A stretch of DNA of 64,000 nucleotides from Eledone cirrhosa (lineage: Eukaryota). The notes under the pieces are model-generated. The model ran no database searches. It had not been told where the DNA came from and was given only the letters and a program-made list of their open reading frames with translations. The translations under genes were made by a program, and so were the position numbers. Shown piece by piece: positions 14,075 to 35,215 of this stretch. The number at the start of each line of letters is the position of its first letter. Position 1 is the first letter of the stretch. The stretch is taken from contig OZ024746.1 in the NCBI GenBank assembly GCA_964016885.1, positions 67,766,001 through 67,830,000 on the forward strand, in the 5' to 3' direction.

Positions 14075-14434
14075 CATATATAAAAGTATATGTAAATATA
14101 AATGTATAAAAGTATATGTAAATATAAATGTATAAAAGTATATGTAAATATAAATGTATATATATATATGTATATATGTACATATATATGTATAAATGTA
14201 TATATATATATGTATATATGTACATATATATGTATATATGTACATATATATATATATGTATATATGTACATGTATATATATATATGTATATATGTACATG
14301 TATATATATATGTATATATATATGTGTATATGTACATGTATATATATATGTATATATATATGTGTATATGTACATGTATATATATGTATATATATGTATA
14401 ATTATGTATATATATATATATCTATATATATGTG
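14075..14434. repeat. (TA)n/(TATG) microsatellite, left flank of the array
   Basis: Direct reading of the sequence. Confidence 0.95.
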
Positions 14435-17400
14435 AAAACAAATAACGAAACGAAATTAAATTTCGTTTCGTTTGTAACTCACTTTTGTATGACTGACGCT
14501 TAAACAATTAAGTTAAAAATGTACATCCACATATGTATACTGAAATACTAGTATGCATATGAATACACACACGTGTACATATGTAGATGTACCGAGTTTT
14601 CACTGGTCACTTTACTGTGAGTGTCCAGCTATTCCGTATGTAGACACACAGACAAACCGGTTCTTAGAGTCATACTGGTTTTTGAGGAAACACCTTTCCT
14701 CTATTCTCCAGAAAGCCAGACAAGGAATATTGGACTAGTTTCGATGTTGTTACATCTCATCAGCAATATTTACCTATCTTCCGGCTTCTCTAGAGAATCG
14801 TGAAAGCACATATCGTTATATGCTTTTTCTATGAAAATTAGTAGTGGGCAGACCAATTTGCATAGAGCGTGAGTACGTACCGGTTCAACGGAGACGATAA
14901 AAACAAATAACGAAACGAAATTAAATTTCGTTTCGTTTGTAACTCACTTTTGTATGACTGACGCTTAAACAATTAAGTTAAAAATGTACATCCACATATG
15001 TATACTGAAATACTAGTATGCATATGAATACACACACGTGTACATATGTAGATGTACCGAGTTTTCACTGGTCACTTTACTGTGAGTGTCCAGCTATTCC
15101 GTATGTAGACACACAGACAAACCGGTTCTTAGAGTCATACTGGTTTTTGAGGAAACACCTTTCCTCTATTCTCCAGAAAGCCAGACAAGGAATATTGGAC
15201 TAGTTTCGATGTTGTTACATCTCATCAGCAATATTTACCTATCTTCCGGCTTCTCTAGAGAATCGTGAAAGCACATATCGTTATATGCTTTTTCTATGAA
15301 AATTAGTAGTGGGCAGACCAATTTGCATAGAGCGTGAGTACGTACCGGTTCAACGGAGACGATAAAAACAAATAACGAAACGAAATTAAATTTCGTTTCG
15401 TTTGTAACTCACTTTTGTATGACTGACGCTTAAACAATTAAGTTAAAAATGTACATCCACATATGTATACTGAAATACTAGTATGCATATGAATACACAC
15501 ACGTGTACATATGTAGATGTACCGAGTTTTCACTGGTCACTTTACTGTGAGTGTCCAGCTATTCCGTATGTAGACACACAGACAAACCGGTTCTTAGAGT
15601 CATACTGGTTTTTGAGGAAACACCTTTCCTCTATTCTCCAGAAAGCCAGACAAGGAATATTGGACTAGTTTCGATGTTGTTACATCTCATCAGCAATATT
15701 TACCTATCTTCCGGCTTCTCTAGAGAATCGTGAAAGCACATATCGTTATATGCTTTTTCTATGAAAATTAGTAGTGGGCAGACCAATTTGCATAGAGCGT
15801 GAGTACGTACCGGTTCAACGGAGACGATAAAAACAAATAACGAAACGAAATTAAATTTCGTTTCGTTTGTAACTCACTTTTGTATGACTGACGCTTAAAC
15901 AATTAAGTTAAAAATGTACATCCACATATGTATACTGAAATACTAGTATGCATATGAATACACACACGTGTACATATGTAGATGTACCGAGTTTTCACTG
16001 GTCACTTTACTGTGAGTGTCCAGCTATTCCGTATGTAGACACACAGACAAACCGGTTCTTAGAGTCATACTGGTTTTTGAGGAAACACCTTTCCTCTATT
16101 CTCCAGAAAGCCAGACAAGGAATATTGGACTAGTTTCGATGTTGTTACATCTCATCAGCAATATTTACCTATCTTCCGGCTTCTCTAGAGAATCGTGAAA
16201 GCACATATCGTTATATGCTTTTTCTATGAAAATTAGTAGTGGGCAGACCAATTTGCATAGAGCGTGAGTACGTACCGGTTCAACGGAGACGATAAAAACA
16301 AATAACGAAACGAAATTAAATTTCGTTTCGTTTGTAACTCACTTTTGTATGACTGACGCTTAAACAATTAAGTTAAAAATGTACATCCACATATGTATAC
16401 TGAAATACTAGTATGCATATGAATACACACACGTGTACATATGTAGATGTACCGAGTTTTCACTGGTCACTTTACTGTGAGTGTCCAGCTATTCCGTATG
16501 TAGACACACAGACAAACCGGTTCTTAGAGTCATACTGGTTTTTGAGGAAACACCTTTCCTCTATTCTCCAGAAAGCCAGACAAGGAATATTGGACTAGTT
16601 TCGATGTTGTTACATCTCATCAGCAATATTTACCTATCTTCCGGCTTCTCTAGAGAATCGTGAAAGCACATATCGTTATATGCTTTTTCTATGAAAATTA
16701 GTAGTGGGCAGACCAATTTGCATAGAGCGTGAGTACGTACCGGTTCAACGGAGACGATAAAAACAAATAACGAAACGAAATTAAATTTCGTTTCGTTTGT
16801 AACTCACTTTTGTATGACTGACGCTTAAACAATTAAGTTAAAAATGTACATCCACATATGTATACTGAAATACTAGTATGCATATGAATACACACACGTG
16901 TACATATGTAGATGTACCGAGTTTTCACTGGTCACTTTACTGTGAGTGTCCAGCTATTCCGTATGTAGACACACAGACAAACCGGTTCTTAGAGTCATAC
17001 TGGTTTTTGAGGAAACACCTTTCCTCTATTCTCCAGAAAGCCAGACAAGGAATATTGGACTAGTTTCGATGTTGTTACATCTCATCAGCAATATTTACCT
17101 ATCTTCCGGCTTCTCTAGAGAATCGTGAAAGCACATATCGTTATATGCTTTTTCTATGAAAATTAGTAGTGGGCAGACCAATTTGCATAGAGCGTGAGTA
17201 CGTACCGGTTCAACGGAGACGATAAAAACAAATAACGAAACGAAATTAAATTTCGTTTCGTTTGTAACTCACTTTTGTATGACTGACGCTTAAACAATTA
17301 AGTTAAAAATGTACATCCACATATGTATACTGAAATACTAGTATGCATATGAATACACACACGTGTACATATGTAGATGTACCGAGTTTTCACTGGTCAC

Positions 17401-19435
17401 TTTACTGTGAGTGTCCAGCTATTCCGTATGTAGACACACAGACAAACCGGTTCTTAGAGTCATACTGGTTTTTGAGGAAACACCTTTCCTCTATTCTCCA
17501 GAAAGCCAGACAAGGAATATTGGACTAGTTTCGATGTTGTTACATCTCATCAGCAATATTTACCTATCTTCCGGCTTCTCTAGAGAATCGTGAAAGCACA
17601 TATCGTTATATGCTTTTTCTATGAAAATTAGTAGTGGGCAGACCAATTTGCATAGAGCGTGAGTACGTACCGGTTCAACGGAGACGATAAAAACAAATAA
17701 CGAAACGAAATTAAATTTCGTTTCGTTTGTAACTCACTTTTGTATGACTGACGCTTAAACAATTAAGTTAAAAATGTACATCCACATATGTATACTGAAA
17801 TACTAGTATGCATATGAATACACACACGTGTACATATGTAGATGTACCGAGTTTTCACTGGTCACTTTACTGTGAGTGTCCAGCTATTCCGTATGTAGAC
17901 ACACAGACAAACCGGTTCTTAGAGTCATACTGGTTTTTGAGGAAACACCTTTCCTCTATTCTCCAGAAAGCCAGACAAGGAATATTGGACTAGTTTCGAT
18001 GTTGTTACATCTCATCAGCAATATTTACCTATCTTCCGGCTTCTCTAGAGAATCGTGAAAGCACATATCGTTATATGCTTTTTCTATGAAAATTAGTAGT
18101 GGGCAGACCAATTTGCATAGAGCGTGAGTACGTACCGGTTCAACGGAGACGATAAAAACAAATAACGAAACGAAATTAAATTTCGTTTCGTTTGTAACTC
18201 ACTTTTGTATGACTGACGCTTAAACAATTAAGTTAAAAATGTACATCCACATATGTATACTGAAATACTAGTATGCATATGAATACACACACGTGTACAT
18301 ATGTAGATGTACCGAGTTTTCACTGGTCACTTTACTGTGAGTGTCCAGCTATTCCGTATGTAGACACACAGACAAACCGGTTCTTAGAGTCATACTGGTT
18401 TTTGAGGAAACACCTTTCCTCTATTCTCCAGAAAGCCAGACAAGGAATATTGGACTAGTTTCGATGTTGTTACATCTCATCAGCAATATTTACCTATCTT
18501 CCGGCTTCTCTAGAGAATCGTGAAAGCACATATCGTTATATGCTTTTTCTATGAAAATTAGTAGTGGGCAGACCAATTTGCATAGAGCGTGAGTACGTAC
18601 CGGTTCAACGGAGACGATAAAAACAAATAACGAAACGAAATTAAATTTCGTTTCGTTTGTAACTCACTTTTGTATGACTGACGCTTAAACAATTAAGTTA
18701 AAAATGTACATCCACATATGTATACTGAAATACTAGTATGCATATGAATACACACACGTGTACATATGTAGATGTACCGAGTTTTCACTGGTCACTTTAC
18801 TGTGAGTGTCCAGCTATTCCGTATGTAGACACACAGACAAACCGGTTCTTAGAGTCATACTGGTTTTTGAGGAAACACCTTTCCTCTATTCTCCAGAAAG
18901 CCAGACAAGGAATATTGGACTAGTTTCGATGTTGTTACATCTCATCAGCAATATTTACCTATCTTCCGGCTTCTCTAGAGAATCGTGAAAGCACATATCG
19001 TTATATGCTTTTTCTATGAAAATTAGTAGTGGGCAGACCAATTTGCATAGAGCGTGAGTACGTACCGGTTCAACGGAGACGATAAAAACAAATAACGAAA
19101 CGAAATTAAATTTCGTTTCGTTTGTAACTCACTTTTGTATGACTGACGCTTAAACAATTAAGTTAAAAATGTACATCCACATATGTATACTGAAATACTA
19201 GTATGCATATGAATACACACACGTGTACATATGTAGATGTACCGAGTTTTCACTGGTCACTTTACTGTGAGTGTCCAGCTATTCCGTATGTAGACACACA
19301 GACAAACCGGTTCTTAGAGTCATACTGGTTTTTGAGGAAACACCTTTCCTCTATTCTCCAGAAAGCCAGACAAGGAATATTGGACTAGTTTCGATGTTGT
19401 TACATCTCATCAGCAATATTTACCTATCTTCCGGC
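14435..19435 (-). repeat. 465-bp hammerhead tandem array, left block (10.75 units, ribozymes on the minus strand)
   Basis: Exact 465-bp periodicity, also visible as ORF-track repeats every 465 bp. No variants were seen between these units. Confidence 0.97.
14726..14770 (-). ncRNA. Type I hammerhead ribozyme, first of 11 minus-strand copies (every 465 bp to 19376-19420)
   Basis: Reverse complement is AAUAUUG CUGAUGA GAUGU AACA ACAUC GAAA C UA G UC CAAUAUU; every conserved core nucleotide is present. Confidence 0.92.
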
Positions 19436-19439
19436 CTAG

Positions 19440-22400
19440 TTGTCTGGCTTTCTGGAGAATAGAGGAAAGGTGTTTCCTCAAAAACCAGTATGACTCTAAG
19501 AACCGGTTTGTCTGTGTGTCTACATACGGAATAGCTGGACACTCACAGTAAAGTGACCAGTGAAAACTCGGTACATCTACATATGTACACGTGTGTGTAT
19601 TCATATGCATACTAGTATTTCAGTATACATATGTGGATGTACATTTTTAACTTAATTGTTTAAGCGTCAGTCATACAAAAGTGAGTTACAAACGAAACGA
19701 AATTTAATTTCGTTTCGTTATTTGTTTTTATCGTCTCCGTTGAACCGGTACGTACTCACGCTCTATGCAAATTGGTCTGCCCACTACTAATTTTCATAGA
19801 AAAAGCATATAACGATATGTGCTTTCACGATTCTCTAGAGAAGCCGGAAGATAGGTAAATATTGCTGATGAGATGTAACAACATCGAAACTAGTCCAATA
19901 TTCCTTGTCTGGCTTTCTGGAGAATAGAGGAAAGGTGTTTCCTCAAAAACCAGTATGACTCTAAGAACCGGTTTGTCTGTGTGTCTACATACGGAATAGC
20001 TGGACACTCACAGTAAAGTGACCAGTGAAAACTCGGTACATCTACATATGTACACGTGTGTGTATTCATATGCATACTAGTATTTCAGTATACATATGTG
20101 GATGTACATTTTTAACTTAATTGTTTAAGCGTCAGTCATACAAAAGTGAGTTACAAACGAAACGAAATTTAATTTCGTTTCGTTATTTGTTTTTATCGTC
20201 TCCGTTGAACCGGTACGTACTCACGCTCTATGCAAATTGGTCTGCCCACTACTAATTTTCATAGAAAAAGCATATAACGATATGTGCTTTCACGATTCTC
20301 TAGAGAAGCCGGAAGATAGGTAAATATTGCTGATGAGATGTAACAACATCGAAACTAGTCCAATATTCCTTGTCTGGCTTTCTGGAGAATAGAGGAAAGG
20401 TGTTTCCTCAAAAACCAGTATGACTCTAAGAACCGGTTTGTCTGTGTGTCTACATACGGAATAGCTGGACACTCACAGTAAAGTGACCAGTGAAAACTCG
20501 GTACATCTACATATGTACACGTGTGTGTATTCATATGCATACTAGTATTTCAGTATACATATGTGGATGTACATTTTTAACTTAATTGTTTAAGCGTCAG
20601 TCATACAAAAGTGAGTTACAAACGAAACGAAATTTAATTTCGTTTCGTTATTTGTTTTTATCGTCTCCGTTGAACCGGTACGTACTCACGCTCTATGCAA
20701 ATTGGTCTGCCCACTACTAATTTTCATAGAAAAAGCATATAACGATATGTGCTTTCACGATTCTCTAGAGAAGCCGGAAGATAGGTAAATATTGCTGATG
20801 AGATGTAACAACATCGAAACTAGTCCAATATTCCTTGTCTGGCTTTCTGGAGAATAGAGGAAAGGTGTTTCCTCAAAAACCAGTATGACTCTAAGAACCG
20901 GTTTGTCTGTGTGTCTACATACGGAATAGCTGGACACTCACAGTAAAGTGACCAGTGAAAACTCGGTACATCTACATATGTACACGTGTGTGTATTCATA
21001 TGCATACTAGTATTTCAGTATACATATGTGGATGTACATTTTTAACTTAATTGTTTAAGCGTCAGTCATACAAAAGTGAGTTACAAACGAAACGAAATTT
21101 AATTTCGTTTCGTTATTTGTTTTTATCGTCTCCGTTGAACCGGTACGTACTCACGCTCTATGCAAATTGGTCTGCCCACTACTAATTTTCATAGAAAAAG
21201 CATATAACGATATGTGCTTTCACGATTCTCTAGAGAAGCCGGAAGATAGGTAAATATTGCTGATGAGATGTAACAACATCGAAACTAGTCCAATATTCCT
21301 TGTCTGGCTTTCTGGAGAATAGAGGAAAGGTGTTTCCTCAAAAACCAGTATGACTCTAAGAACCGGTTTGTCTGTGTGTCTACATACGGAATAGCTGGAC
21401 ACTCACAGTAAAGTGACCAGTGAAAACTCGGTACATCTACATATGTACACGTGTGTGTATTCATATGCATACTAGTATTTCAGTATACATATGTGGATGT
21501 ACATTTTTAACTTAATTGTTTAAGCGTCAGTCATACAAAAGTGAGTTACAAACGAAACGAAATTTAATTTCGTTTCGTTATTTGTTTTTATCGTCTCCGT
21601 TGAACCGGTACGTACTCACGCTCTATGCAAATTGGTCTGCCCACTACTAATTTTCATAGAAAAAGCATATAACGATATGTGCTTTCACGATTCTCTAGAG
21701 AAGCCGGAAGATAGGTAAATATTGCTGATGAGATGTAACAACATCGAAACTAGTCCAATATTCCTTGTCTGGCTTTCTGGAGAATAGAGGAAAGGTGTTT
21801 CCTCAAAAACCAGTATGACTCTAAGAACCGGTTTGTCTGTGTGTCTACATACGGAATAGCTGGACACTCACAGTAAAGTGACCAGTGAAAACTCGGTACA
21901 TCTACATATGTACACGTGTGTGTATTCATATGCATACTAGTATTTCAGTATACATATGTGGATGTACATTTTTAACTTAATTGTTTAAGCGTCAGTCATA
22001 CAAAAGTGAGTTACAAACGAAACGAAATTTAATTTCGTTTCGTTATTTGTTTTTATCGTCTCCGTTGAACCGGTACGTACTCACGCTCTATGCAAATTGG
22101 TCTGCCCACTACTAATTTTCATAGAAAAAGCATATAACGATATGTGCTTTCACGATTCTCTAGAGAAGCCGGAAGATAGGTAAATATTGCTGATGAGATG
22201 TAACAACATCGAAACTAGTCCAATATTCCTTGTCTGGCTTTCTGGAGAATAGAGGAAAGGTGTTTCCTCAAAAACCAGTATGACTCTAAGAACCGGTTTG
22301 TCTGTGTGTCTACATACGGAATAGCTGGACACTCACAGTAAAGTGACCAGTGAAAACTCGGTACATCTACATATGTACACGTGTGTGTATTCATATGCAT

Positions 22401-25400
22401 ACTAGTATTTCAGTATACATATGTGGATGTACATTTTTAACTTAATTGTTTAAGCGTCAGTCATACAAAAGTGAGTTACAAACGAAACGAAATTTAATTT
22501 CGTTTCGTTATTTGTTTTTATCGTCTCCGTTGAACCGGTACGTACTCACGCTCTATGCAAATTGGTCTGCCCACTACTAATTTTCATAGAAAAAGCATAT
22601 AACGATATGTGCTTTCACGATTCTCTAGAGAAGCCGGAAGATAGGTAAATATTGCTGATGAGATGTAACAACATCGAAACTAGTCCAATATTCCTTGTCT
22701 GGCTTTCTGGAGAATAGAGGAAAGGTGTTTCCTCAAAAACCAGTATGACTCTAAGAACCGGTTTGTCTGTGTGTCTACATACGGAATAGCTGGACACTCA
22801 CAGTAAAGTGACCAGTGAAAACTCGGTACATCTACATATGTACACGTGTGTGTATTCATATGCATACTAGTATTTCAGTATACATATGTGGATGTACATT
22901 TTTAACTTAATTGTTTAAGCGTCAGTCATACAAAAGTGAGTTACAAACGAAACGAAATTTAATTTCGTTTCGTTATTTGTTTTTATCGTCTCCGTTGAAC
23001 CGGTACGTACTCACGCTCTATGCAAATTGGTCTGCCCACTACTAATTTTCATAGAAAAAGCATATAACGATATGTGCTTTCACGATTCTCTAGAGAAGCC
23101 GGAAGATAGGTAAATATTGCTGATGAGATGTAACAACATCGAAACTAGTCCAATATTCCTTGTCTGGCTTTCTGGAGAATAGAGGAAAGGTGTTTCCTCA
23201 AAAACCAGTATGACTCTAAGAACCGGTTTGTCTGTGTGTCTACATACGGAATAGCTGGACACTCACAGTAAAGTGACCAGTGAAAACTCGGTACATCTAC
23301 ATATGTACACGTGTGTGTATTCATATGCATACTAGTATTTCAGTATACATATGTGGATGTACATTTTTAACTTAATTGTTTAAGCGTCAGTCATACAAAA
23401 GTGAGTTACAAACGAAACGAAATTTAATTTCGTTTCGTTATTTGTTTTTATCGTCTCCGTTGAACCGGTACGTACTCACGCTCTATGCAAATTGGTCTGC
23501 CCACTACTAATTTTCATAGAAAAAGCATATAACGATATGTGCTTTCACGATTCTCTAGAGAAGCCGGAAGATAGGTAAATATTGCTGATGAGATGTAACA
23601 ACATCGAAACTAGTCCAATATTCCTTGTCTGGCTTTCTGGAGAATAGAGGAAAGGTGTTTCCTCAAAAACCAGTATGACTCTAAGAACCGGTTTGTCTGT
23701 GTGTCTACATACGGAATAGCTGGACACTCACAGTAAAGTGACCAGTGAAAACTCGGTACATCTACATATGTACACGTGTGTGTATTCATATGCATACTAG
23801 TATTTCAGTATACATATGTGGATGTACATTTTTAACTTAATTGTTTAAGCGTCAGTCATACAAAAGTGAGTTACAAACGAAACGAAATTTAATTTCGTTT
23901 CGTTATTTGTTTTTATCGTCTCCGTTGAACCGGTACGTACTCACGCTCTATGCAAATTGGTCTGCCCACTACTAATTTTCATAGAAAAAGCATATAACGA
24001 TATGTGCTTTCACGATTCTCTAGAGAAGCCGGAAGATAGGTAAATATTGCTGATGAGATGTAACAACATCGAAACTAGTCCAATATTCCTTGTCTGGCTT
24101 TCTGGAGAATAGAGGAAAGGTGTTTCCTCAAAAACCAGTATGACTCTAAGAACCGGTTTGTCTGTGTGTCTACATACGGAATAGCTGGACACTCACAGTA
24201 AAGTGACCAGTGAAAACTCGGTACATCTACATATGTACACGTGTGTGTATTCATATGCATACTAGTATTTCAGTATACATATGTGGATGTACATTTTTAA
24301 CTTAATTGTTTAAGCGTCAGTCATACAAAAGTGAGTTACAAACGAAACGAAATTTAATTTCGTTTCGTTATTTGTTTTTATCGTCTCCGTTGAACCGGTA
24401 CGTACTCACGCTCTATGCAAATTGGTCTGCCCACTACTAATTTTCATAGAAAAAGCATATAACGATATGTGCTTTCACGATTCTCTAGAGAAGCCGGAAG
24501 ATAGGTAAATATTGCTGATGAGATGTAACAACATCGAAACTAGTCCAATATTCCTTGTCTGGCTTTCTGGAGAATAGAGGAAAGGTGTTTCCTCAAAAAC
24601 CAGTATGACTCTAAGAACCGGTTTGTCTGTGTGTCTACATACGGAATAGCTGGACACTCACAGTAAAGTGACCAGTGAAAACTCGGTACATCTACATATG
24701 TACACGTGTGTGTATTCATATGCATACTAGTATTTCAGTATACATATGTGGATGTACATTTTTAACTTAATTGTTTAAGCGTCAGTCATACAAAAGTGAG
24801 TTACAAACGAAACGAAATTTAATTTCGTTTCGTTATTTGTTTTTATCGTCTCCGTTGAACCGGTACGTACTCACGCTCTATGCAAATTGGTCTGCCCACT
24901 ACTAATTTTCATAGAAAAAGCATATAACGATATGTGCTTTCACGATTCTCTAGAGAAGCCGGAAGATAGGTAAATATTGCTGATGAGATGTAACAACATC
25001 GAAACTAGTCCAATATTCCTTGTCTGGCTTTCTGGAGAATAGAGGAAAGGTGTTTCCTCAAAAACCAGTATGACTCTAAGAACCGGTTTGTCTGTGTGTC
25101 TACATACGGAATAGCTGGACACTCACAGTAAAGTGACCAGTGAAAACTCGGTACATCTACATATGTACACGTGTGTGTATTCATATGCATACTAGTATTT
25201 CAGTATACATATGTGGATGTACATTTTTAACTTAATTGTTTAAGCGTCAGTCATACAAAAGTGAGTTACAAACGAAACGAAATTTAATTTCGTTTCGTTA
25301 TTTGTTTTTATCGTCTCCGTTGAACCGGTACGTACTCACGCTCTATGCAAATTGGTCTGCCCACTACTAATTTTCATAGAAAAAGCATATAACGATATGT

Positions 25401-28400
25401 GCTTTCACGATTCTCTAGAGAAGCCGGAAGATAGGTAAATATTGCTGATGAGATGTAACAACATCGAAACTAGTCCAATATTCCTTGTCTGGCTTTCTGG
25501 AGAATAGAGGAAAGGTGTTTCCTCAAAAACCAGTATGACTCTAAGAACCGGTTTGTCTGTGTGTCTACATACGGAATAGCTGGACACTCACAGTAAAGTG
25601 ACCAGTGAAAACTCGGTACATCTACATATGTACACGTGTGTGTATTCATATGCATACTAGTATTTCAGTATACATATGTGGATGTACATTTTTAACTTAA
25701 TTGTTTAAGCGTCAGTCATACAAAAGTGAGTTACAAACGAAACGAAATTTAATTTCGTTTCGTTATTTGTTTTTATCGTCTCCGTTGAACCGGTACGTAC
25801 TCACGCTCTATGCAAATTGGTCTGCCCACTACTAATTTTCATAGAAAAAGCATATAACGATATGTGCTTTCACGATTCTCTAGAGAAGCCGGAAGATAGG
25901 TAAATATTGCTGATGAGATGTAACAACATCGAAACTAGTCCAATATTCCTTGTCTGGCTTTCTGGAGAATAGAGGAAAGGTGTTTCCTCAAAAACCAGTA
26001 TGACTCTAAGAACCGGTTTGTCTGCGTGTCTACATACGGAATAGCTGGACACTCACAGTAAAGTGACCAGTGAAAACTCGGTACATCTACATATGTACAC
26101 GTGTGTGTATTCATATGCATACTAGTATTTCAGTATACATATGTGGATGTACATTTTTAACTTAATTGTTTAAGCGTCAGTCATACAAAAGTGAGTTACA
26201 AACGAAACGAAATTTAATTTCGTTTCGTTATTTGTTTTTATCGTCTCCGTTGAACCGGTACGTACTCACGCTCTATGCAAATTGGTCTGCCCACTACTAA
26301 TTTTCATAGAAAAAGCATATAACGATATGTGCTTTCACGATTCTCTAGAGAAGCCGGAAGATAGGTAAATATTGCTGATGAGATGTAACAACATCGAAAC
26401 TAGTCCAATATTCCTTGTCTGGCTTTCTGGAGAATAGAGGAAAGGTGTTTCCTCAAAAACCAGTATGACTCTAAGAACCGGTTTGTCTGTGTGTCTACAT
26501 ACGGAATAGCTGGACACTCACAGTAAAGTGACCAGTGAAAACTCGGTACATCTACATATGTACACGTGTGTGTATTCATATGCATACTAGTATTTCAGTA
26601 TACATATGTGGATGTACATTTTTAACTTAATTGTTTAAGCGTCAGTCATACAAAAGTGAGTTACAAACGAAACGAAATTTAATTTCGTTTCGTTATTTGT
26701 TTTTATCGTCTCCGTTGAACCGGTACGTACTCACGCTCTATGCAAATTGGTCTGCCCACTACTAATTTTCATAGAAAAAGCATATAACGATATGTGCTTT
26801 CACGATTCTCTAGAGAAGCCGGAAGATAGGTAAATATTGCTGATGAGATGTAACAACATCGAAACTAGTCCAATATTCCTTGTCTGGCTTTCTGGAGAAT
26901 AGAGGAAAAGTGTTTCCTCAAAAACCAGTATGACTCTAAGAACCGGTTTGTCTGTGTGTCTACATACGGAATAGCTGGACACTCACAGTAAAGTGACCAG
27001 TGAAAACTCGGTACATCTACATATGTACACGTGTGTGTATTCATATGCATACTAGTATTTCAGTATACATATGTGGATGTACATTTTTAACTTAATTGTT
27101 TAAGCGTCAGTCATACAAAAGTGAGTTACAAACGAAACGAAATTTAATTTCGTTTCGTTATTTGTTTTTATCGTCTCCGTTGAACCGGTACGTACTCACG
27201 CTCTATGCAAATTGGTCTGCCCACTACTAATTTTCATAGAAAAAGCATATAACGATATGTGCTTTCACGATTCTCTAGAGAAGCCGGAAGATAGGTAAAT
27301 ATTGCTGATGAGATGTAACAACATCGAAACTAGTCCAATATTCCTTGTCTGGCTTTCTGGAGAATAGAGGAAAGGTGTTTCCTCAAAAACCAGTATGACT
27401 CTAAGAACCGGTTTGTCTGTGTGTCTACATACGGAATAGCTGGACACTCACAGTAAAGTGACCAGTGAAAACTCGGTACATCTACATATGTACACGTGTG
27501 TGTATTCATATGCATACTAGTATTTCAGTATACATATGTGGATGTACATTTTTAACTTAATTGTTTAAGCGTCAGTCATACAAAAGTGAGTTACAAACGA
27601 AACGAAATTTAATTTCGTTTCGTTATTTGTTTTTATCGTCTCCGTTGAACCGGTACGTACTCACGCTCTATGCAAATTGGTCTGCCCACTACTAATTTTC
27701 ATAGAAAAAGCATATAACGATATGTGCTTTCACGATTCTCTAGAGAAGCCGGAAGATAGGTAAATATTGCTGATGAGATGTAACAACATCGAAACTAGTC
27801 CAATATTCCTTGTCTGGCTTTCTGGAGAATAGAGGAAAGGTGTTTCCTCAAAAACCAGTATGACTCTAAGAACCGGTTTGTCTGTGTGTCTACATACGGA
27901 ATAGCTGGACACTCACAGTAAAGTGACCAGTGAAAACTCGGTACATCTACATATGTACACGTGTGTGTATTCATATGCATACTAGTATTTCAGTATACAT
28001 ATGTGGATGTACATTTTTAACTTAATTGTTTAAGCGTCAGTCATACAAAAGTGAGTTACAAACGAAACGAAATTTAATTTCGTTTCGTTATTTGTTTTTA
28101 TCGTCTCCGTTGAACCGGTACGTACTCACGCTCTATGCAAATTGGTCTGCCCACTACTAATTTTCATAGAAAAAGCATATAACGATATGTGCTTTCACGA
28201 TTCTCTAGAGAAGCCGGAAGATAGGTAAATATTGCTGATGAGATGTAACAACATCGAAACTAGTCCAATATTCCTTGTCTGGCTTTCTGGAGAATAGAGG
28301 AAAGGTGTTTCCTCAAAAACCAGTATGACTCTAAGAACCGGTTTGTCTGTGTGTCTACATACGGAATAGCTGGACACTCACAGTAAAGTGACCAGTGAAA

Positions 28401-28957
28401 ACTCGGTACATCTACATATGTACACGTGTGTGTATTCATATGCATACTAGTATTTCAGTATACATATGTGGATGTACATTTTTAACTTAATTGTTTAAGC
28501 GTCAGTCATACAAAAGTGAGTTACAAACGAAACGAAATTTAATTTCGTTTCGTTATTTGTTTTTATCGTCTCCGTTGAACCGGTACGTACTCACGCTCTA
28601 TGCAAATTGGTCTGCCCACTACTAATTTTCATAGAAAAAGCATATAACGATATGTGCTTTCACGATTCTCTAGAGAAGCCGGAAGATAGGTAAATATTGC
28701 TGATGAGATGTAACAACATCGAAACTAGTCCAATATTCCTTGTCTGGCTTTCTGGAGAATAGAGGAAAGGTGTTTCCTCAAAAACCAGTATGACTCTAAG
28801 AACCGGTTTGTCTGTGTGTCTACATACGGAATAGCTGGACACTCACAGTAAAGTGACCAGTGAAAACTCGGTACATCTACATATGTACACGTGTGTGTAT
28901 TCATATGCATACTAGTATTTCAGTATACATATGTGGATGTACATTTTTAACTTAATT
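19440..28957 (+). repeat. 465-bp hammerhead tandem array, right inverted block (about 20.5 units, ribozymes on the plus strand)
   Basis: Reverse complement of the left block. Only two substitutions were noticed (26025 T>C and 26909 G>A). Confidence 0.97.
19858..19902 (+). ncRNA. Type I hammerhead ribozyme, first of 20 plus-strand copies (every 465 bp to 28693-28737); predicted cleavage after C19895
   Basis: Helix I AAUAUUG/CAAUAUU; core CUGAUGA at 19865-19871; helix II GAUGU-AACA-ACAUC; GAAA at 19886-19889; helix III ACUAGU; GUC triplet. Confidence 0.92.
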
Positions 28958-29012
28958 ATATATATGTGTATGTACATATATATATATATATATATCTATA
29001 TATATGTGTATG

Positions 29013-29050
<38 letters not shown>

Positions 29051-29080
29051 CATGTATATGGATATATGTATATATATATA
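28958..29080. repeat. (TA)n/(TATG) microsatellite, right flank of the array
   Basis: Direct reading of the sequence. Confidence 0.95.
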
Positions 29081-29206
29081 ATGTAGGAGGTGAGTTTTAT
29101 TGTAGTACAATAAAGCAATGCAGATATCGGATAAGAAGCACTCTACAGTTTGTAGGACTGGAGTATACATAATATAAGATCAAAAGATGGTTAAAGGAGT
29201 TCCATG

Positions 29207-29274
29207 TATTTTATTATGCGCATTTCAAAAACAAACATCATGCAATAATATTTGTGTTTTCATCAGATAAAACA
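29207..29274 (-). ncRNA. Type I hammerhead ribozyme, left arm
   Basis: Minus strand reads UGUUUUAU-CUGAUGA-AAACACAAAUAU..AUGUUUGUUUUU-GAAA-UGCGCA-UA^-AUAAAAUA. Confidence 0.8.
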
Positions 29275-29455
29275 GGAGAACATGATATGAAGGCTAAAAA
29301 ACACTTGTGGGTAGTGCAGTTTTAAATCAACATGAAACAGGAGAACATGATATGAAGGCTAAAAAACACTTGTGGATAGTGCAGTTTTAAATCAACATGT
29401 TGATTTAAAACTGCACTACCCACAAGTGTTTTTTAGCCTTCATATCATGTTCTCC

Positions 29456-29526
29456 TGTTTTATCTGATGAAAACACAAATATTATTGCATGATGATGTTT
29501 GTTTTTGAAATGCGCATAATAAAATA
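29456..29526 (+). ncRNA. Type I hammerhead ribozyme, right arm; predicted cleavage after A29518
   Basis: UGUUUUAU-CUGAUGA-(helix II 29471-29506)-GAAA-UGCGCA-UA^-AUAAAAUA, with palindromic helix III AUGCGCAU. Confidence 0.8.
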
Positions 29527-29589
29527 CATGGAACTCCTTTAACCATCTTTTGATCTTATATTATGTATATATATATATATATGTACATG

Positions 29590-29626
<37 letters not shown>

Positions 29627-30594: not shown

Positions 30595-31290
30595 CAGAGT
30601 GCAGACAATATTTGCTCGCAAGGTTACTGTCTAGGAAAAAATAACACAGTAGTTTTATTTTTTAAGATTTATTTATCAAACTTGGGTCAGTTTGTCTTCA
30701 TGACTTGTTCTTTCGATCTCACTCGATAAATCCTCCATTGGCTTTGATGACGGCCTCAAAGCGGCCTCGGAATCGGCTACAGGCTATCGTTACTGTCCGC
30801 CGACTTAGGCCCCTAAAAGCACTTGTGATCCTGACCTTCAGATCGTCTTTCGTATTGCAGCTAGATCTGTTGGTGTCTCGTTCCACTGCACCCCCACACA
30901 AAGAAGTCGAGGGGGTTGCAGCCAGGCGAGCTGGGAGGCCAGATGTCAGGTGAAGTGTGGTTGACGAAGTTCTCTGGCAGCCAGGCTTGGGCCTTTCGGC
31001 TGGTATGGCAAGGTGCTGAGTCTTGTTGTCACACGTACGGCCTACCTGCAGCTACCTGGTCGATCCAGGGCTTTACTACCTCGCTCAGAACGCGGATGTA
31101 GCCATCGGTGTTCAACTTGAGGCCCTCAGGGAAGAAGTGAGGTGGCATGACGTCACCTTGACTGCTGACGACACCTAAGACCAATGTTATCACAGGAAAC
31201 TTTGTCTGCATGACTCTGGGCACGTCTTTGGATGAGACAGCGAACCACCTGTTCTGGGAGTTGATCTTCTGGTCTTATTTGTCCTCCCGG
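30595..31290 (-). mobile_element. maT/DD37D Tc1-mariner transposon, 3' part, pseudogenised
   Basis: VLGVVSSQGDVMPPHFF...KPWID...YV*QQDSAPCHTS...WPPSSPGCNPLDFFVWG. Exactly 37 residues separate the catalytic D of QQDSAP from the D of NPLD. The end reads TA|CAGAGTG, and the 5' part is interrupted by the PLE. Confidence 0.85.
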
Positions 31291-31300
31291 CGTGGATTCC

Positions 31301-35215
<3,915 letters not shown>

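Follow-up and report, generated by a model that had tools for sequence, protein, structure and literature searches.

Non-LTR (long terminal repeat) retrozymes are described, in the available portions of the two accounts on which we draw (Cervera and de la Pena 2020, PMC7229834; Li et al. 2026, 10.64898/2026.07.22.740005), as non-coding tandem units of low G+C content and strong folding, each with one type I hammerhead ribozyme whose helix III is short and palindromic, and with target duplications of more than 4 nt. Animal retrozymes make circles, and the copying of such circles into tandem complementary DNA (cDNA) has been modelled for them (PMC7229834); the other account draws on phylogeny to link retrozymes with Penelope elements and appeals to local amplification (10.64898/2026.07.22.740005). 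As described in those portions, the arrays are head-to-tail only, with no two-armed build, fixed start sites or sequence evidence of repeated reading. Here we analyse a 64,000-nt stretch of Eledone cirrhosa DNA ("the window", part of contig C6 of a 3.0-Gb assembly), in which a block of about 14.5 kb (14435-28957) is a young non-LTR retrozyme insertion, built of a 465-bp unit in two outward-pointing arms joined by CTAG (Table 1). The unit shares the structural features listed first (173 G+C of 465 bp, or 37%; a modal duplication of 12 nt), and its length is slightly over the 150-450 bp of PMC7229834 and inside the 51-972 bp of 10.64898/2026.07.22.740005.

The geometry of the array is like that of endonuclease-bearing (EN+) Penelope-like elements, for which a 5'-truncated arm in inverted, head-to-head position, a tail confined to one end, two internal start sites, TA-rich targets and a short duplication (8-10 nt in rotifer examples) are reported in the portions available of Arkhipova 2013 (PMC3846280), Craig 2021 (PMC8557442) and Frangieh 2024 (PMC11167929). 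The Anolis Penelope protein nicks and extends both strands, two internal RNA start sites define the tail, and the protein is predicted to be a dimer (PMC11167929). Compared with the elements in those accounts, the array has no coding frame, a tail of about 70 nt rather than 30-40, arms that are both multimers, of up to 20 units, and a strict and countable pairing of one long with one short end; no homology of its unit to the Penelope pseudo-LTRs sampled here was found. In PMC8557442 the way in which Penelope elements acquire inverted ends and a tail on one side only is described as unresolved; the in vitro work of PMC11167929, as far as its available portion goes, addresses it only partly. MRC1-type non-autonomous Chlamys elements have 3' sequence in common with their partners, and hammerheads are described as absent from most Chlamys elements (PMC8557442).

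Judged from its sequence, the array would work like a Penelope insertion, and it files as a non-LTR retrozyme on its unit, its hammerhead, its non-coding nature and its features of dispersal and duplication. Twin priming of L1 offers a further comparison: there, a staggered cut leaves two 3' ends that prime on a single RNA, and microhomology joins the two cDNAs, producing an inversion. In contrast to L1, there is no poly(A) here, the second priming falls at a fixed rather than a random site, and the arms overlap in sequence and are multimeric. A literature search covering titles and abstract openings of openly available papers returned no report of two-armed retrozyme arrays, of a pairing rule for their ends or of edit barcodes.

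Paired outer ends and target-site duplication

The unit belongs to a large family, a hammerhead 33-mer having 1622 exact matches genome-wide on many contigs and a 41-mer of the young subfamily 174. Two samples were drawn from it. Set 1 comprises 48 loci, of which one is the window itself, 18 were taken from 150 matches listed out of 260, and 29 represent every place found in the first 100 listed matches of the hammerhead 33-mer; 38 of the 48 are two-armed and divergent by a fixed rule. Set 2 comprises 45 regions, in which two-armed insertions were called by hand, giving 29 insertions in 28 regions. The pooled sample is 67 two-armed insertions with 134 inner ends, and most of the loci were chosen via patterns at or near the hammerhead, so that the sampling is biased toward it. 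Not counted in set 2 were L189 (a near-duplicate of L188), an older insertion that the edge of L175 truncates, and 14 regions that were single-armed, contained gaps or were unfinished; L205 and L215, each with one end missing at the time of counting, were also left out, and both later fitted the rule given next.

The outer ends of the arms fall at two places in the unit, positions 295-301 (site A) and 224-233 (site B), and one arm ends at A and the other at B in 61 of the 67 insertions (33/38 in set 1 and 28/29 in set 2). Insertions with two A ends or two B ends number zero, and the remaining six have an odd end. The window conforms, its left arm ending at unit 298 (the usual family position of the A end is 301). 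Contigs from another sample have ends at 301, 227 and 232, likewise running into TA. Site A lies in an unpaired U-rich stretch immediately 3' of a predicted 13-bp hairpin (261-289), and site B lies in a small predicted hairpin 5' of it. It had been noted from the window alone that both arms point outward and run into (TA)n; this holds for the two TA tracts there, and array ends fall in (TA)n across the family. By analogy, the pairing of outer ends is the 'tail' rule of Penelope elements.

The original prediction held that there was no target-site duplication. The 12-mer TATATATATGTG is in fact present at both ends of the array, and duplications of 11-13 nt are found family-wide. The window's 12-mer alone is weak, its flank being a degenerate microsatellite. 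Most flanks are pure TA, and 13 of the 61 A+B loci are informative, having a non-TA letter no more than 8 nt from an end. Ten of these 13 show a direct repeat across both ends (12 nt in six; 11, 13, 15 and 24 nt in one each), compared with 8 of 156 when end pairs were swapped as a control. A duplication around outward-pointing arms would be produced by staggered nicks with 3' overhangs, each 3' end priming.

Sequence variants common to both arms

Both arms of a locus carry a common haplotype. Every unit of L048 carries the variant 96A>G, and this locus accounts for all 21 of the variant's genome-wide matches, split 10 and 11 between the arms. A more elaborate pattern is seen at C2:95.69 Mb (L220/L215, 95.688-95.695), where one unit, compared with the unit next to it, shows 27 A>G changes and 4 of other kinds. 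U or A stands 5' of 23 of the 27 A>G sites, a context that we take to be that of adenosine editing. In the short arm, unedited and hyper-edited units alternate (N-H-N-H), and in the long arm the hyper-edited unit appears as three whole and two partial units; both outermost units are hyper-edited, and a 28-mer marker has its five genome-wide matches only there. An identical set of 25 sites is repeated in both arms. Editing marks a single RNA molecule, so identical repeats of a pattern require that this molecule was read more than once, or that each arm later underwent duplication. An RNA stage of the unit is apparently implied by the hyper-edited copy. At C5:63.09 Mb, haplotypes run a-b-a-b-a in one arm and b-a-b beside the joint in the other, with both outermost units a. 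Most arms extend past the hammerhead cleavage site: 56 of the 61 that end at A do so, and 57 of the 61 that end at B.

Three variants considered as private marks, 85C, 423G and 271/272GG, were rejected as not private (32, 1053 and 61 matches, respectively). Another array, at C1:363.102-363.108 Mb, shows a period-2 A/G alternation across seven units of one arm, and a 495-nt contig of run X2 closes on itself over the unit, as would a contig from tandem DNA.

Proposed mechanism

We propose that the block, a two-armed array with unlike fixed ends and a 12-nt duplication, was probably inserted in one event by a Penelope-like reverse transcriptase (RT)/GIY-YIG enzyme acting in trans. That both strands were primed in one event seems to us highly probable, and a circular template is a good deal more probable than a linear one. 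The original prediction had already suggested one insertion by Penelope-type machinery with both ends of a break primed, which is borne out by the A+B rule, the duplication and the barcodes; its rolling copying of a template finds a counterpart in the repeated reading of one template indicated by L048 and the hyper-edited units.

The enzyme would cut each strand of a TA tract, with the nicks staggered by about 12 nt so that 3' overhangs remain. A single RNA would then be primed twice, by one 3' end at site A (unit ~301) and by the other 3' end at site B (~227-232), with the hairpin between the two sites. From there both cDNAs would be extended backwards around the RNA, through the ribozyme cleavage site, and the number of turns would vary, most simply on a monomer or dimer circle as template. 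Extension would halt at unrelated points, and microhomology or a few filler bases would link the two cDNA ends into the head-to-head pair. The role of the hammerhead would be in making the circle, not the joint, and unequal exchange may later lengthen the arms. We give somewhat better than an even chance to a broader version of this scheme, according to which rolling-circle reverse transcription in vivo would have left its record in these arrays: a Penelope enzyme acting as a dimer would grip one ribozyme-made circle at the hairpin, with one active site on each side (A and B), prime both strands of a 12-nt staggered cut and make up to 20 turns per arm, RNA edits of the single circle would be frozen as barcodes of that molecule, and the same rule would explain Penelope inversions and one-sided tails generally.

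The array itself can only be a passenger, rather than an autonomous EN+ Penelope-like element, since a six-frame check of the unit found no reading frame for RT plus GIY-YIG; its longest stop-to-stop frame in six frames is 64 amino acids (aa), making it non-coding. A candidate helper, on sequence grounds, is a 784-aa protein with the Pfam families RVT_1 and GIY-YIG, encoded by a young intact Penelope-like element with a 4.73-kb unit and many near-identical copies in the same genome (L160-L173, e.g. C5:17.088-17.097 Mb); the first frame of this element is 455 aa long and matches no Pfam family. Among 12 insertions of the 784-aa element, all eight two-armed copies pair a long with a short end, about 40 nt apart, in TA. 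A partner search by homology returned only neighbouring retrozyme copies and a sister family, and a simple-pattern search for a hammerhead core in two Penelope-like families gave no clear one.

The rule of one A and one B end, together with the 12-nt duplication, provides a sharp, testable geometry for the inverted ends and tails of Penelope elements. Retrozyme arrays have been attributed to circle copying (PMC7229834) and to later unequal crossover (10.64898/2026.07.22.740005), direct sequence evidence being previously lacking in the available portions of those papers; the private variants and the hyper-edited unit in both arms supply some. With a young family beside an intact candidate enzyme, reconstitution is feasible, and if the proposal is true, an enzyme able to turn a 465-nt circle into multi-kb concatemers within TA tracts would be of interest to genome writing.

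Several observations pull the other way. Three of the 13 informative loci have no duplication (L046, via a mis-set end, L191 and L216). A>G changes are not in general excess over T>C (149 vs. 139 overall; 29 vs. 21 among locus-fixed changes, p 0.26), so that 96A>G need not be an edit, and the marker at C5:63.09 Mb is common to 14 places, so that the dimer there could stem from DNA. The counts of arms running past the cleavage site are inflated, since the loci were mostly picked by hammerhead patterns. Older arrays have variants repeated in blocks (L057, L065, L066, L205), indicating expansion after insertion, and reach 50-140 units, with 142 anchors in a 467-bp array; such expansion is real and could explain the alternation as well as part of the window's 31 units. 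No homology was found between the unit and the ends of the 784-aa and ~710-aa Penelope-like families, with two to three families sampled in the 3.0-Gb genome. In vitro, uncleaved RNA is the main substrate and the two strands were not found to differ in start site, according to the available portion of PMC11167929.

Alternative explanations and the inner joint

Some of these points would suit a Penelope-like enzyme priming both strands on a linear, uncleaved multimer transcript, with arms that are short at first and grow later by unequal exchange. The in vitro substrate preference and the expansion visible in older arrays speak for it, as do the local amplification favoured in the available portion of Li et al. 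2026 (10.64898/2026.07.22.740005) and the nearly marker-free units of the window. We nevertheless hold this to be unlikely: a private variant fixed throughout the 21 units of one locus's two arms, and a 25-site edit pattern that recurs unchanged in both arms of another, need repeated reading of one RNA unit, or separate in-register later duplications in each arm, and arms of 3-11 units are already present at many unlinked loci whose unit is identical to the window's. Chance abutment, whether of two separate insertions or through recombination that inverted a satellite, is another reading, given that families pile up in TA tracts (several are nested in the window, and two insertions lie side by side in L175 and in L177), but none of 61 pairs is AA or BB, a single duplication spans both arms, the joint is without TA, and private haplotypes are common to both arms, which makes chance abutment highly improbable. 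The near-perfect 10-kb palindrome also has the typical look of a chimeric fold-back read. In such a chimera the flank would be mirrored and the arms would be equal; here the unique flanks are not mirrored, and the arms are of unequal length and end at different unit positions. The same build, moreover, recurs with different joints at 67 loci of several ages, in subfamilies 88-100% alike, and the A and B ends running into TA in contigs of another sample argue likewise, though copy numbers may still be mis-assembled. Contigs of four public runs include no listed piece spanning the window's joint, and are uninformative, their common alleles differing from the young subfamily. We regard an assembly artefact as extremely improbable.

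The inner joint bears on a further possibility, that the inversion was made by fold-back self-priming at, or caused by, the hammerhead; self-priming has been proposed for Penelope inversions (PMC3846280, in its available portion). The coordinates first given for the joint were confirmed, the left arm ending in ...CCGGC at 19435, followed by CTAG and by the inverted block from 19440, and so were its distances, the left block starting exactly 15 nt before the hammerhead (helix I) and the right block 9 nt after the cleavage site. The 66-nt loop of the inversion (19374-19439) holds exactly one hammerhead, the first of the left arm, and the CTAG filler does equal the helix III palindrome, as had been pointed out. 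The derivation of the joint from the ribozyme is unsupported, however: CTAG occurs three times in the unit (positions 182, 405 and 460), one of these 4 nt past the left arm's end, so the filler could stem from more than one of them. The window's exact joint has a single occurrence in the genome. The clustering of inversion points at the ribozyme that had been predicted was checked on the 67 loci, and the inner ends are scattered: 18 of 134 lie inside the hammerhead (unit 426-465 and 1-10) vs. 14.4 expected, two lie within 3 nt of the cleavage site vs. 2.0 expected, and both inner ends lie within 15 nt of the hammerhead in one of 67 loci, the window only, vs. 1.84 expected. Joints in set 1 comprise 21 with overlap, 13 with filler and 4 blunt, out of 38.

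Some preference is nonetheless hinted at by the pooled inner ends within 15 nt of the hammerhead (31/134 vs. 22.2 expected, p 0.03), by the clustering of B-arm inner ends in set 1 (Rayleigh p 0.002), and by L031, L035 and L041, young loci on different contigs with nearly the same joint, 211-214 / 436-440, inside the core. The B-arm clustering was lost in set 2: a window chosen post hoc in set 1 (22/33) and fixed beforehand for set 2 failed there (11/28, p 0.33). The sampling, too, favours the hammerhead, either arm may be the longer one, and copying back one arm would not yield outer ends that are unlike by rule, so that fold-back at the hammerhead appears very unlikely. The joint beside the ribozyme in the window is likely chance, and its position is of no importance. 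A mild preference of joints for the hammerhead may exist, and 211-214 / 436-440 is possibly a hot spot just past site B.

The array, its neighbours and the wider family

Coordinates in the window are collected in Table 1. Unit position 1 is the base just after the hammerhead cleavage site (window 19896). The ten whole units of the left arm are identical, and 17 of the 19 in the right arm are the same as these (27 of 29 pooled), the other two being singletons with one private base each. The type I hammerhead is present in 31 exact copies within the window; in the copy at 19858-19902, helix I is formed by 19858-19864 and 19896-19902, followed within it by the core CTGATGA (19865-19871), helix II (19872-19885), GAAA (19886-19889) and the palindromic helix III, with cleavage after 19895. 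It scores 38.9 bits (E 4.3e-08) against Rfam HH9, below the gathering score of 52, and Rfam at gathering scores gives zero matches in the window. The predicted folding of the unit is strong compared with shuffles (z -8.6), and as a circle it is predicted to reach -152 kcal/mol vs. -96 +/- 6 for 30 shuffles.

Table 1. Features of the retrozyme array and neighbouring elements in the window
Feature	Position	Strand	Basis or remark
Left TA-rich microsatellite, insertion target	14076-14434	.	sequence
Left copy of 12-nt target-site duplication, TATATATATGTG	14423-14434	+	flank comparison
Left arm, 10.75 copies of the 465-bp unit, from unit 413 (inner) to unit 298 (outer, long end A)	14435-19435	-	
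'Tail' of ~70 nt (unit 228-298), excess of the A end over the B end; predicted 13-bp hairpin at unit 261-289	14435-14505	-	
First hammerhead of left arm, cleavage between 19383 and 19382	19376-19420	-	
CTAG filler, inner joint	19436-19439	.	source ambiguous (unit 405 or 460)
Right arm, 20.47 copies, from unit 10 (inner) to unit 227 (outer, short end B)	19440-28957	+	
First whole type I hammerhead of right arm	19858-19902	+	Rfam HH9 and core pattern
Right copy of 12-nt target-site duplication, first base common to right arm	28957-28968	+	flank comparison
Right TA-rich microsatellite	28957-29080	.	sequence
Second non-coding family, two-armed insertion	29081-29568		left arm with 84-nt tail, right arm without
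5'-truncated broken Penelope-like element with inverted arm	31301-33625		GIY-YIG pieces 32073-32901 (-)

The same divergent geometry had been claimed for two neighbouring blocks. The one given as 29164-29568 is indeed two-armed, though it really starts at 29081, and its family pairs a long with a short end in all six pairs that are fully seen. A hammerhead-like core can be made out there by eye (CTGATGA at 29464, GAAA and a palindromic TGCGCA); Rfam at gathering scores finds no hammerhead family in 29060-29600. The block at 31301-33625 does have an inverted arm, but its left arm does not end in TA; the family to which it belongs is very abundant, with 61364 first-look candidates, and has open frames of up to 713 aa, which Pfam does not recognise. 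Short pieces of further TA-targeting families lie between TA tracts at 33735-33895 and 34280-34460, the latter resembling, by eye, the end of the 784-aa element. Broken minus-strand frames at 30600-31300 have the look of what we take to be a Tc1/mariner transposase.

Elsewhere in the genome, a mixed array at C5:87.62-87.69 Mb, tried as the heterogeneous source of 229C daughters, proved to be an older 467-bp subfamily with 94% identity and was discarded as evidence. This 68-kb array (L118-L129, C5:87.618-87.686 Mb) has about 145 units with altered hammerhead bases and ends at site A in TA; to judge by these features it is a retrozyme turned satellite. A sister retrozyme family with 63-73% identity to the unit occurs at L110:2689-3157, L114:7015-7781 and L167:70-920, the hammerhead core and helix III being kept, the sequence of helices I and II altered, and the copy at L114 inverted as well. 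The family appears to be widespread among relatives, words of the unit occurring in public runs labelled as 17 different organisms; among the 24 public runs listed with such words, none is listed as RNA. Register jumps within one arm, seen in L035, L057, L058, L076 and L216, suggest that the template was switched or a stretch deleted internally. Copies with a single arm lie between direct repeats at L070:2445-2884 (about 11 nt, in non-TA sequence) and L214:1300-2112 (about 25 nt), which suggests an alternative closure of the insertion.

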